Of a DNA stretch of 3,646 nucleotides, positions 1,946 to 3,274 are shown piece by piece. This DNA comes from a virus (lineage: Duplodnaviria; Heunggongvirae; Uroviricota; Caudoviricetes), in IMG/VR virus record IMGVR_UViG_2778261594_000007, one strand, 5' to 3'. The position numbers were made by a program, and so were the translations under genes. The first letter of the stretch is position 1. Each line of letters begins with the position of its first letter. The notes beneath the pieces are model-generated. The model was not told the DNA's origin and did no database searches. It saw nothing but the letters and a program-made list of their open reading frames with translations.

Positions 1946-2066
1946 CATATATAGGGCAAATGATGAACATAAAAAAAGCGGCCCCGAAATGGAGCCACCT
2001 TTCTGAACAATTAACCCGCTGCGCCGTATGTGTCAACAATCATAAGCCTGGGCATGATAACCGCGA

Positions 2067-2270
2067 TCAGGCTGGTGGGCAATTATCTTGCTTGTTGGGG
2101 CCGTATTGTGCTGCCATTTTCATCCGTTCGGAACGTGAATATTTTTTTAGAAACTCATCAAGGACAAAAGCGCATGGTGCGAATCTTTCTGATTCATGCT
2201 CGAGCGCCATATTTTCGTGCTCTCTGTTCGTTTTTTGCGATGGTGTATTGGTTGATTCTTTGTTGGTCAT
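2067..2270 (-). CDS. Hypothetical 67-aa hydrophilic protein downstream of the RHH gene (possibly co-transcribed)
   Basis: ORF on the minus strand with AGGT 7 nt upstream of ATG (plus coords 2268-2270); 57-bp gap after the RHH stop and no terminator between them. No recognisable motif, and composition is not obviously protein-like, so this is weak. Confidence 0.3.
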   Translation of the reverse strand: MTNKESTNTPSQKTNREHENMALEHESERFAPCAFVLDEFLKKYSRSERMKMAAQYGPNKQDNCPPA

Positions 2271-2327: not shown

Positions 2328-2504
2328 TTATTCTTTTGATTCTATGCCGCGTTTATCCAACTCACGGCGCAAAAGCCTTTTTATCCATCCTGAGCGGTTA
2401 TCATCGCCATCTTCTTTCATGGCGATGCTTAAGCGTTCGAATAAGTCAGCATCAAGACGAAGCTGTACGGAAAACCTTTCCTTTTTGTTGTCATTGGTTG
2501 ACAT
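2328..2504 (-). CDS. Ribbon-helix-helix (CopG/Arc/MetJ-like) DNA-binding protein, 58 aa; candidate repressor of the element
   Basis: Translation verified codon by codon on the minus strand: MSTNDNKKERFSVQLRLDADLFERLSIAMKEDGDDNRSGWIKRLLRRELDKRGIESKE. It has an N-terminal alternating beta-strand (RFSVQLRL) followed by two helices, the RHH pattern. GAGG lies 6 nt upstream of the ATG. The longer track ORF (199 aa) extends upstream through low-complexity sequence and is probably not real. Confidence 0.65.
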   Translation of the reverse strand: MSTNDNKKERFSVQLRLDADLFERLSIAMKEDGDDNRSGWIKRLLRRELDKRGIESKE

Positions 2505-2526
2505 TGTATACCTCGAGTATAATAAT
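2498..2526 (+). promoter_or_regulatory. Candidate sigma70 promoter for the rightward small-gene operon
   Basis: Seen in sequence: consensus TTGACA (2498-2503); perfect TATAAT (2518-2523) at a short 14-bp spacing, or AATAAT (2521-2526) at 17-bp spacing. Predicted start near 2530-2535. Confidence 0.45.
2500..2512. repeat. Direct repeat copy 1 (GACATTGTATACC), putative operator half-site
   Basis: Seen in sequence: 12/13 identical to copy 2 at 2538-2550; overlaps the RHH start codon and the plus-strand TTGACA. Confidence 0.55.
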
Positions 2527-2542
2527 GGCCTTACGGTGACAA
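2516..2542 (-). promoter_or_regulatory. Candidate promoter for the RHH gene, face-to-face with the rightward promoter
   Basis: Minus-strand reading: TTGTCA (2542-2537), 15-bp spacer, TATACT (2521-2516), ending 11 nt before the RHH ATG. This would give a very short, near-leaderless mRNA that excludes the GAGG, so either the mRNA is leaderless or the real promoter lies further upstream. Confidence 0.3.
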
Positions 2543-2550
2543 TGTATACC
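2538..2550. repeat. Direct repeat copy 2 (GACAATGTATACC), putative operator half-site
   Basis: Seen in sequence: 38 bp downstream of copy 1 (start to start); the two copies bracket the -10 regions of the predicted divergent promoters. Confidence 0.55.
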
Positions 2551-2630
2551 AATGACACCACAAAAGCAAAGCCCGCTGGCGCTATGAACACCAACGGGCT
2601 TCTAACCAACAACGTAAACGAGGAGCCGTT

Positions 2631-2831
2631 ATGGTTGCCGTAAATCATATACCACACCTTGTACACACACAAACGGCCTTTGTGTGGCGTTTTCTGGCAC
2701 TGAGTGCCGGAGAATCTCAAATCATCCACGTAACCGCCTGGACGGAACGCGAAGCGCGTAGCCGTTGCCCGTCCGGTTGTGTTGCTGTATTTGCCGCCCG
2801 TATTCGCCAGGGAGAAACCTATGCACAATAA
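2631..2831 (+). CDS. Hypothetical 66-aa protein, possible first gene of the rightward operon
   Basis: Strong SD GAGGAG (2620-2625) 5 nt before ATG 2631; stop TAA 2829-2831 overlaps the start of the next ORF by 11 nt. Caveat: the ORF contains a hairpin plus T-run (2666-2694) that could instead mark a structured leader. Confidence 0.35.
   Translation: MVAVNHIPHLVHTQTAFVWRFLALSAGESQIIHVTAWTEREARSRCPSGCVAVFAARIRQGETYAQ
2666..2694 (+). promoter_or_regulatory. Hairpin plus T-run: weak terminator or attenuator-like element, or protein-binding inverted repeat
   Basis: Seen in sequence: perfect 8-bp inverted repeat CACACAAA (2666-2673) / TTTGTGTG (2679-2686) with 5-nt loop CGGCC, then GCG and TTTT (2691-2694). 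The stem is AT-rich, so termination would be weak. Confidence 0.3.
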
Positions 2832-3060
2832 AACCACACCGGACGCAGCCGCCGCCGCGCTCACTACGCTGATGCACGCGCTTATTGATATTTCTGTTAT
2901 TGCTGACAGGGCGCATAAGCACGCCACCAGTGAAACAGAATATGCCGGGGCTTTCGTTCCTCATTCGCTGGCGGTTATGCAACTTAGTGCTGATATGGCT
3001 CTGAATGAGGCCAAAGCTATCCTGATTGCTGATTGTGAAAATGGGGGGGGTTATGCGTGA
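2821..3060 (+). CDS. Hypothetical small acidic, alanine-rich protein (79 aa)
   Basis: SD GGAG (2811-2814) 6 nt before ATG 2821; translation verified, ending CENGGGYA, stop TGA 3058-3060. Its stop overlaps the next ORF start (ATGCGTGA), suggesting translational coupling. Confidence 0.55.
   Translation: MHNKTTPDAAAAALTTLMHALIDISVIADRAHKHATSETEYAGAFVPHSLAVMQLSADMALNEAKAILIADCENGGGYA
3043..3050. repeat. G8 homopolymer tract at the junction of two ORFs
   Basis: Seen in sequence: eight consecutive G encoding the GGG of the upstream C-terminus and serving as SD for the downstream ATG 3053. Confidence 0.9.
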
Positions 3061-3274
3061 TGATCGTTTTAATTCCCTGAAACAGGAATTTTCCGGCGTT
3101 CCTGATGATGCGGCTGATGCGCTTTCGTCAATATCTGAAATTATGCGGGTGGCTTTTTTCTTTCTTTGCACTGATGAGCACAGAGATACAGGGCTAAATA
3201 TTCTTGATATTGCCGCTAACTATGCTGATTTCGTGACAGAGGTTATTTTAAGAAAAGCGACGGACGGGGATTAA
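3053..3274 (+). CDS. Hypothetical small very acidic protein (73 aa; about 15 Asp/Glu vs 7 Lys/Arg)
   Basis: ATG 3053 is 2 nt after the G8 tract; translation verified (MRDDRFNSLKQEF...KATDGD); stop TAA 3272-3274. The track's upstream start at 3026 is less likely than the SD-supported ATG 3053. Confidence 0.55.
   Translation: MRDDRFNSLKQEFSGVPDDAADALSSISEIMRVAFFFLCTDEHRDTGLNILDIAANYADFVTEVILRKATDGD

Follow-up and report, generated by a model that had tools for sequence, protein, structure and literature searches.

A predicted ribbon-helix-helix repressor switch at the head of the replication operon of an Escherichia coli satellite island

The 3,646-nucleotide stretch of DNA analyzed here (IMG/VR record IMGVR_UViG_2778261594_000007, hereafter the window) is the left end of a ~9.6-kb satellite island of the Gram-negative phage-inducible chromosomal island (PICI) type, located next to a tRNA-Pro gene in E. 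coli. Between a leftward gene encoding a 58-amino-acid protein and a rightward operon that starts with an Icd/Kil-like gene, two nearly identical short repeats lie across the predicted promoters. These repeats are most likely the binding sites of the 58-amino-acid protein, a small ribbon-helix-helix (RHH) repressor that would silence the main operon of the island. We assign a probability of roughly 0.7 to the reading that the region is an immunity-type switch of a Gram-negative PICI-like island, with the RHH protein repressing both the Icd-like/replication operon and its own promoter. A preliminary description of this DNA had proposed a compact switch operated by the RHH protein; that proposal is now supported by the exchange of the repressor gene together with its repeats as one cassette, by the existence of 16 switch types, and by co-variation of the operator sequence with the beta-strand of the protein.

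The 13-mers GACATTGTATACC (2500-2512) and GACAATGTATACC (2538-2550) are identical at 12 of 13 positions and start 38 bp apart, exactly as first described. Extending the pair by one base leftward gives 13/14 identity, and we refer to the extended copies as the putative left operator O_L (TGACATTGTATACC, 2499-2512) and the putative right operator O_R (TGACAATGTATACC, 2537-2550). Relative to the rightward promoter P_R and the leftward promoter candidate P_L introduced below, O_L covers about -34 to -21 of P_R and +23 to +36 of P_L, and O_R covers about +5 to +18 of P_R and -16 to -3 of P_L. The reported overlap of the left repeat with the plus-strand -35 (TTGACA, 2498-2503) and with the RHH start codon (minus-strand ATG, 2504-2502) was found in place, and O_R holds the -10 hexamer TACATT of P_L. 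The copies are centered at 2504 and 2542 and flank the P_R -10 (2521-2526).

Each copy is a pseudo-palindrome, in which the core ACAWTGT is followed by GTATAC. Owing to the self-complementarity of this core, both operator copies also fall within an extended 31-nt inverted repeat, whose arms (2477-2507 and 2539-2569) are 81% complementary. The original reading of the pair as direct repeats thus stands for the 12/13 direct match, but the unit is pseudo-palindromic, and most relatives have it as an inverted pair. When the right 31-nt arm is taken on the plus strand, its sequence (ATG TAT ACC AAT GAC ACC ACA AAA, translated as MYTNDTTK) resembles the minus-strand start of the RHH protein, MSTNDNKK. 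Judged from these letters, the right arm (2539-2569) looks like an inverted duplication of the RHH gene start (2477-2507). CAWTG pentamers 10 bp apart were also considered as the repeat unit and were dropped, as the distal left pentamer reads CTTTG in relatives. The 13-mers form the only pair with at most one mismatch within 60 bp in the 3646-bp window, and in a local test none of 300 shuffles of the right-hand zone reached 12/13. The pair alone is modestly significant, and comparative evidence was therefore needed.

Promoters were predicted by scanning with a sigma-70 position weight matrix (PWM) the window and 15 loci that encode close RHH homologs (L003 in E. coli and 14 loci from other genera), the RHH proteins of which are 73-89% identical to that of the window, or more. 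P_R (2498-2526, plus strand) consists of the -35 TTGACA (2498-2503), a 17-bp spacer, and the -10 AATAAT (2521-2526). It is near-consensus, matching at 11 of 12 positions, and it was the top plus-strand candidate, at the same position, in all 16 of these RHH-A loci (scores of 12-15.5). Transcription from it is predicted to start at ~2533, at a distance of 28-30 nt from the RHH ATG. The sole minus-strand candidate at a conserved position was TTKNNN-17/18-TACATT (16/16 loci; PWM scores of 6.4-10.8). In the window this candidate, P_L (2541-2569), has the -35 TTGCTT (2569-2564), a 17-bp spacer, and the -10 TACATT (2546-2541). The -10 corresponds to the alignment block AATGTA (2541-2546), which, like GGTTGACAT, is invariant in the 16 loci. 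With a predicted start at ~2534, P_L would give a ~30-nt leader that includes the conserved Shine-Dalgarno sequence GAGG (2514-2511) of the RHH gene. An arrangement equivalent to P_L was recognized by eye in locus L004 and in the record of Pasteurella phage Pmp8, which was the single record returned by a protein search of a phage database and served as a distant comparison.

The preliminary description had placed sigma-70 hexamers of both strands between the repeats. Its plus-strand promoter holds, at 11/12 consensus positions, but the minus-strand hexamers between the repeats (TATACA-18-TATTAT) are weak, matching the consensus at 9/12, and their position is not conserved in relatives. This candidate and a second one, TTGTCA-15-TATACT, were ranked below the TACATT candidate for lack of positional conservation, and also because an mRNA start at 2509-2512 falls downstream of the conserved Shine-Dalgarno sequence. 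Judged by position and conservation, the leftward promoter is probably TTGCTT-17-TACATT rather than the hexamers between the repeats. If so, the two promoters would be truly face-to-face, with predicted 5' ends that meet at ~2533/2534, within a few nucleotides of each other; the alternative minus-strand candidate would give non-overlapping divergent starts. The idea of face-to-face overlapping promoters therefore survives, as a prediction, for the conserved P_L candidate but not for the hexamers between the repeats.

The predicted transcripts also bear on a reading of the symmetry at the RNA level, by which the 31-nt inverted repeat would form a hairpin in read-through transcripts, coming from alpA or running leftward, and regulate how the RHH gene or a leader open reading frame (ORF) is translated. 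The 81% complementarity of the arms and a stop-free plus-strand frame that spans the region (1900-2643) are in keeping with it. We consider it highly improbable: neither the predicted P_R transcript nor the predicted P_L transcript contains both arms, in most relatives the repeat is limited to a core of 11-13 bp, and the palindromes of other cassettes are too short for a stable RNA hairpin.

The segment containing the RHH gene, both operators, both promoters, and a terminator (T1, described below) is an exchangeable cassette, delimited at ~2334-2593 by alignment with locus L002. L002 and the window are ~98% identical outside this segment and unrelated inside it, and in islands that are otherwise ~98-99% identical the cassette is replaced by unrelated cassettes. 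The version found in the window was present in 18 of 5426 complete E. coli genomes. Repeats around the promoter were also found in the other cassettes. L002 has GTGTTYAACAC three times around TTGACG-17-TAAATT, L004 has ACATGGTAATTACC twice, 30 bp apart, L006 has GTGGTCACCT twice, 35 bp apart, and L005 has GTGTGTTTCATG as an inverted pair. One YlcI type has the putative operator GTGTTCAACAC. In the 15-kb satellite-like Pmp8 record, whose RHH protein is just 44% identical to that of the window, GGTATATACC and GGTAATTACC lie 31 bp apart.

A significant, mostly inverted repeat (10-13 of 13 positions) is common to the left and right zones of the 16 RHH-A loci, and in most relatives an inverted core of 11-13 bp is seen; relatives show the pair as an inverted repeat because each copy is pseudo-palindromic. 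Flanking bases that are free of promoter or start-codon constraint vary between lineages and match within a locus, as in TATACC (window), TCAACTC (L016 and L017), and GTGTTTT (L015). For a broader survey, 78 IMG/VR loci (among L025-L104) were anchored on the conserved Icd-like gene and typed. They carried 16 switch types at one conserved position, the type of the window being represented by one of the 78 loci. Every switch type had a -35 of the TTGAC(A/G) or TTGAA type, located 122-141 nt from the ATG of the icd-like gene, and the top plus-strand PWM candidate was P_R at the equivalent position in each (16/16). Fourteen of the 16 had a type-specific repeat with one copy at the -35/spacer and one just past the -10 (shuffling p<=0.03). 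Examples of palindromic repeats in other switch types are GTGGCTGACAC, TGTACGTACGT, GTGCAAGTCAC, and ATGTGCGCACA. Many YlcI-type cassettes carry a third, upstream repeat copy, followed by a conserved CAGTATACAC.

The repeats follow the protein. RHH-B (E. coli) and RHH-D (Pasteurella) have a common beta-strand, YQMRL, and a common operator, GGTAATTACC; the RHH-C beta-strand FRMRI pairs with GGTGGTCACC, and the window beta-strand VQLRL pairs with TGTAYACC. Among RHH-A proteins, GTATACC sites go with S or A at residue 12, and GTACACC sites with V. By alignment with NikR, the positions of the beta-strand that would read DNA are residues 12, 14, and 16 (S, Q, and R in the window protein); RHH-C has Q and R at residues 12 and 14. 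Across these comparisons, the operator sequence tracks the RHH beta-strand residues and not AlpA, the helix-turn-helix (HTH) protein encoded further upstream in the island.

The RHH gene itself (2328-2504, minus strand; Shine-Dalgarno GAGG, 2514-2511), for which we propose a repressor role, encodes 58 residues. All 96 homologs in the protein collection are annotated as hypothetical and lack a Pfam domain, and the Prokaryotic Genome Annotation Pipeline (PGAP) sometimes calls the long ORF on the opposite strand and omits the RHH gene. An AlphaFold2 model built from 34 homologs (mean predicted local distance difference test score of 79) has an extended segment at residues 10-18 and helices at residues 19-32 and 37-51. 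The top Foldseek matches in the Protein Data Bank (PDB) were RHH proteins, namely the NikR N-terminal domain, Arc, and MazE9, with CopG lower in the list; the NikR match had a probability of 0.98 and 39% identity over 38 residues at a root-mean-square deviation of 1.0 Å. We accept an RHH fold for the protein. Searches of Pfam, NCBIfam, PHROGs, and Foldseek returned no C-type or HTH family match.

Several observations weigh against the repressor-operator interpretation. On the protein side, the match to Pfam RHH_1 is at E=0.02 and 15.2 bits, below the cut-off of 20.5, NCBIfam YlcI_YnfO_N is also below threshold (17.2 versus 30), and the NikR model is weak too, so no curated RHH family model in Pfam or NCBIfam is matched above threshold. 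A family-profile search of PDB sequences gave nothing significant (NikR at E=0.89), and the Foldseek E-values exceed 0.1; the latter are weak because the domain is short (~40 residues). On the DNA side, P_L in the window scores just 9.8 bits in the PWM scan, and the 38-bp center-to-center spacing of the repeats (~3.6 helical turns) is not suggestive of same-face cooperativity. Dinucleotide shuffles of the whole window gave at least one comparable 13-mer pair in 9 of 100 cases. O_L is partly constrained by the -35 and the start codon, which explain its TTGACAT, and O_R is partly constrained by the putative -10, which explains its AATGTA. Finally, the L003 RHH protein is identical to that of the window over 57 of 58 residues (the first 57), yet its left copy matches at 9/13; changes in the left site may thus be tolerated, or this site may be the less important one.

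The shuffling result, the overlapping constraints, and the degraded L003 copy would all fit repeats that have no binding function, being either the remnant of a local duplication or a chance similarity on top of the -35, start-codon, and -10 constraints. The resemblance of the 31-nt inverted repeat to an inverted duplication of the RHH gene 5' end would fit as well. We regard this explanation as improbable. The unconstrained flanks match within a locus and differ between lineages, an own repeat recurs at the two equivalent positions in 14 of 16 independent switch types, and the operator follows the RHH beta-strand across genera.

Another explanation is that the repeats are bound by AlpA, or by some other factor encoded outside the cassette, that activates the rightward operon. 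AlpA activates PICI genes in EcCICFT073 (PMC6092414), and a third exact copy of TGTATACC is located at 1641-1648, ~98 bp upstream of alpA, giving three copies in the window versus 0.07 expected. L001, a locus from which the island as a whole was annotated, and L002 nevertheless encode an identical AlpA (WP_000387403.1) next to unrelated switch sequences. AlpA is unlikely to bind the two repeats, because the identical protein accompanies entirely different switches, and the scenario of an activator from outside the cassette appears very unlikely to us. The alpA-upstream TGTATACC is, moreover, unchanged in islands that carry YlcI or RHH-B cassettes. It does not follow the switch repeats and was rejected as an RHH-specific operator; it may instead be a site through which AlpA regulates its own gene. 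This copy lies in the near-palindrome ACGGTGTATACCGT, which is followed by the partial direct repeat AACGGTGAGTACTGT (1637-1670).

The gene next to the RHH gene allowed a further alternative to be weighed, that the RHH protein is the antitoxin of a type II toxin-antitoxin pair and that the repeats only autoregulate this pair. Its partner would be orf67 (2067-2270, minus strand), the second gene of the leftward unit, which lies outside the cassette and matches phrog_21027, of unknown function. RHH antitoxins do autoregulate via repeated operators, the two small genes are co-oriented, and the structural neighbors of the RHH protein include MazE9, PrpA, and HicB-associated RHH domains. We consider this the least probable of the alternatives. 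A toxin-antitoxin pair is contradicted by the lack of co-variation between orf67 and the RHH gene: orf67 is 98.5% conserved beside a different cassette in which RHH is swapped for an unrelated repressor. The 58-residue RHH protein ends directly after helix 2 and has no toxin-binding tail, as judged from its model and sequence. No toxin or defence model matched orf67 (Pfam, NCBIfam, and PADLOC), the PADLOC defence/toxin models gave no match, and one repeat is located on the -35 of the replication operon promoter.

For the repressor reading, a sequence of events can be proposed from the geometry of the region and the mode of action of Mnt, Arc, and CopG, which are RHH repressors. RHH dimers place a two-stranded beta-ribbon in the major groove of an operator that is repeated or pseudo-symmetric; the pseudo-palindromic repeats beside the gene and their co-variation with the beta-strand are indirect evidence for such binding here. 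CopG reportedly represses by blocking access of RNA polymerase to its promoter (PMC2724298). The 58-residue RHH protein would be made from the weak leftward promoter, and its dimers or higher oligomers would bind the two pseudo-palindromic sites (core ACAWTGT-ATACC). When bound at O_L, the protein would occlude the -35 of P_R and turn off the operon for the Icd/Kil-like, replication, and capsid proteins. When bound at O_R, it would cover the -10 of P_L, resulting in negative autoregulation. Since the polymerase footprints at P_R and P_L overlap almost fully, RNA polymerase at one promoter would exclude it from the other. Upon loss of the repressor, the strong P_R would be expected to silence the weak P_L and with it the repressor gene, as in a bistable switch.

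Among known systems, immI of phage P22, which comprises the Mnt and Arc RHH repressors, the Pant and Pmnt promoters, and the sar antisense RNA (PMC2629481), is by analogy the closest in function, and P4 is the closest in gene order. Like immI, the island has an RHH repressor gene divergent from a strong promoter, with a putative operator that overlaps this promoter, and the weak promoter of the repressor gene overlaps the operator/promoter stretch. The first genes of the operon that is repressed in P22 are the target of an antisense RNA, and here T1 suggests a similar RNA. The differences from immI are that no sequence relation to Mnt or Arc was detected beyond the fold, that there is one repressor gene and not two, that two operators lie 38 bp apart, that the start codon lies inside the -35, that the regulated genes are Icd/Kil-like and replication genes rather than the antirepressor gene ant, and that the host element is a satellite island and not a phage moron. 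No ant homolog was found in the window by Pfam, NCBIfam, and PHROGs searches.

The preliminary description had compared the region with the P2-type C-repressor switch. This likeness holds for the geometry: as in P2 and 186, the repeats flank an early-type -10, and transcription of the repressor gene is directed towards the lytic promoter and crosses it; with the conserved P_L candidate, the promoters would also be face-to-face. It does not extend to the repressor family, the Cox-type gene, or the spacing. The repressor has an RHH fold and is not of the P2 C type, the first gene is Icd/Kil-like (NF033153) with no Cox/Apl-type first gene in Pfam and NCBIfam searches, and the predicted transcripts would overlap by only a few nucleotides. 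In P2, O1 and O2 are spaced about two helical turns apart, whereas here pseudo-palindromic copies are 38 bp apart.

The left operon of P4 has vis and its promoter P_LL, the P_LE promoter, immunity based on the CI/C4 RNA, and the nested genes kil and eta (PMC10111431). The island shares with P4 an AlpA/Vis homolog, a constitutive-type promoter, a leader, a 66-residue Kil/Icd-like first gene, and replication genes, and, as a counterpart of eta, a plus-strand ORF that begins at the end of alpA and extends over the promoter as far as the icd-like start. Unlike P4, it has no C4 or isrK RNA (Rfam) and carries a divergent, putative protein repressor with DNA operators at the position of the immunity determinant. 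The related island L004 has isrK and C4 RNAs just downstream of the RHH switch, and L024 probably has them too. The switch also resembles that of Staphylococcus aureus pathogenicity islands and other Gram-positive PICIs, in which the master repressor Stl (Rpr) is satellite-encoded, divergent from the replication operon (stl-str promoters), and of many allelic specificities. Stl proteins are larger HTH repressors that are inactivated by helper-phage proteins. The NikR N-terminal domain and plasmid CopG are the best structural neighbors of the RHH protein, which differs from NikR in lacking the nickel-binding C-terminal domain and from CopG in having no role in plasmid copy control and in its operator.

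An RNA-based switch was also considered for the leader. A P1 c4- or P4 CI-type immunity RNA was rejected for lack of Rfam support: no C4/CI-type RNA was found in the whole window at E<=1, positions 2480-2720 gave only a meaningless CRISPR-DR hit at E<=10, and neither C4 nor isrK was found in the whole island at gathering scores. The method works, since the same search finds C4 and isrK in L004. There, isrK (66 bits) and C4 (77.6 bits) RNAs are located at 2959-3144, between the RHH switch and a second icd-like gene. L024 (1532-1870) has an identical RHH-A cassette, and its equivalent insert is called an 'ash family protein' pseudogene by PGAP. Protein-based and RNA-based control can thus be stacked in one island. 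A survey reported C4/isrK RNA immunity in the PICI "dynamic zone" (PMC10111431).

T1 (2568-2602, minus strand), a hairpin followed by UUUGCUUUU, is an intrinsic terminator located directly upstream of P_L, to which its U-tract supplies the -35. T1 is conserved across cassettes, with 11 base pairs, seven of which show compensatory changes, and with G.U pairs that are valid on the minus strand only; its folding energy is -27.1 kcal/mol on the minus strand versus -15.3 on the plus strand. T1 lies between the switch and the icd-like gene and points to leftward transcription arriving from the icd-like gene. It suggests a short sar-like leftward RNA that would be antisense to the icd-like ribosome-binding site. 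A candidate leftward promoter, TTGTGT-17-TATGAT (2672-2644), would produce an RNA of ~75 nt, ending at about 2563-2568, that is complementary to the Shine-Dalgarno sequence and ATG of the icd-like gene. The putative T1-ended RNA matched no Rfam family. A second terminator, T2 (1971-1998, minus strand), located 26 bp from the alpA stop codon, ends the RHH-orf67 unit (-19.8 kcal/mol and z of -5.7 on the minus strand versus -7.3 on the plus strand). The sole Rfam hit in the whole window, Atu_C8 (E=0.12), is the T2 hairpin and is not meaningful.

Immediately to the right of the cassette boundary, TCTAACCAACAAC (2601-2613) is conserved in every switch type and from E. coli as far as Pasteurella, where Pmp8 has TCTAACCAACAA. 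Possible roles are those of a linker at which cassettes recombine or of a functional element of the leader or antisense RNA.

The plus strand contains a 247-codon ORF (1900-2643) that begins inside the end of alpA, runs antisense to orf67 and the RHH gene, crosses the switch, and ends 12 nt past the ATG of the icd-like gene. By frame arithmetic it shares wobble positions with the RHH frame, a point checked computationally on the other-species loci. No protein family matched the N-terminal part of this ORF. Of six E. coli cassette types, four (the window, L003, L004, and L005) have plus-strand frames that stay open over the switch, and the long frame is in frame with the icd-like ATG in L003 (2238-4025), L004 (2161-3390), and L005 (2040-2663). 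The L004 frame traverses both isrK and C4 and continues to the stop codon of the icd-like gene. Long open frames of 208-432 codons were found in 8 of 14 other-species loci. In P4, transcripts that start at the vis promoter escape immunity through the translation of eta (PMC10111431), and by analogy with eta/kil the ORF suggests that AlpA-driven read-through could bypass the RHH switch.

A more far-reaching proposal, which we put forward tentatively and consider less likely to be right than wrong, is that the small RHH and YlcI/YnfO proteins whose genes diverge from the Icd-like operon are the missing master repressors of Gram-negative PICIs, forming at least 16 heteroimmune cassettes swapped at conserved boundaries, each with a repressor, operators, face-to-face promoters, and an insulating terminator. 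Induction would then occur via AlpA-driven read-through, with the eta-like ORF antiterminating, and would proceed without inactivation of the repressor. In this proposal the eta-like ORF, being antisense to the repressor gene, would protect read-through from termination, like transcription from P_LL in P4.

In E. coli, both Shiga-toxigenic and other, the island lies between the genes yejM and yejO; carrier strains include FWSEC0008 and 2012C-4431, and the sequence in NZ_CP031906 is 98.6% identical to the window. A 16-bp att-like direct repeat, TTTTAGTTATACGTTT, delimits the island. Near int, AGTTATACG occurs twice in direct orientation and CGTATAACT twice in inverted orientation; both motifs probably serve as arm sites for an integrase or excisionase. 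In L001 these elements are found at 13913-13985, just left of the window, and at 23460. The gene order is int, a small ORF, the AlpA-like HTH gene, the two leftward small genes (the RHH gene and orf67), and the rightward operon. In L001, the operon encodes the Icd-like protein, small ORFs, DUF4222, a RepA helicase, a single-stranded DNA-binding protein, and a protease/major-capsid fusion. The Icd/Kil-like first gene (2631-2831, plus strand; Shine-Dalgarno GAGGAG, 2620-2625) matches NCBIfam NF033153 at E=6e-18, and the small ORFs that follow it matched in PHROGs solely entries of unknown function. Gram-negative PICIs are divided into integration, dynamic, replication, and late zones (PMC10111431), and the annotation of L001 shows this layout, with int, alpA, a replication module, and a capsid gene within ~9.6 kb. 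Such islands typically measure about 10-20 kb, often include a capsid gene, and lack a complete set of virion or lysis genes, a description that L001 fits. A DNA search of the phage database gave integrase fragments only. The 15-kb Pmp8 'phage' record encodes a primase, an AlpA-like protein, a terminase, and an RHH protein divergent from a gene with an Icd-like domain; it has an Rfam int-alpA RNA hit of 46 bits (L023 7939-8004) and looks like a packaged satellite.

The switch belongs to an ordinary, well-known type of control that is not yet described for these islands; our literature searches found no description of an RHH or YlcI repressor in Gram-negative PICIs. The interest lies in the context: in Gram-negative PICI-type satellites, the replication operon is headed by a protein-repressor module that is highly polymorphic and is built around an RHH family that is uniformly annotated as hypothetical and is sometimes overlooked where the long ORF on the opposite strand is called instead. 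The finding points to a protein-based, cassette-exchangeable immunity switch that heads the replication operon in many islands of E. coli and other Enterobacterales, and also occurs in at least one Pasteurella element. If confirmed, it would provide a compact, sequence-defined set of orthogonal repressor/operator pairs. It would also explain how these islands are kept silent and would predict heteroimmunity groups among co-resident satellites.

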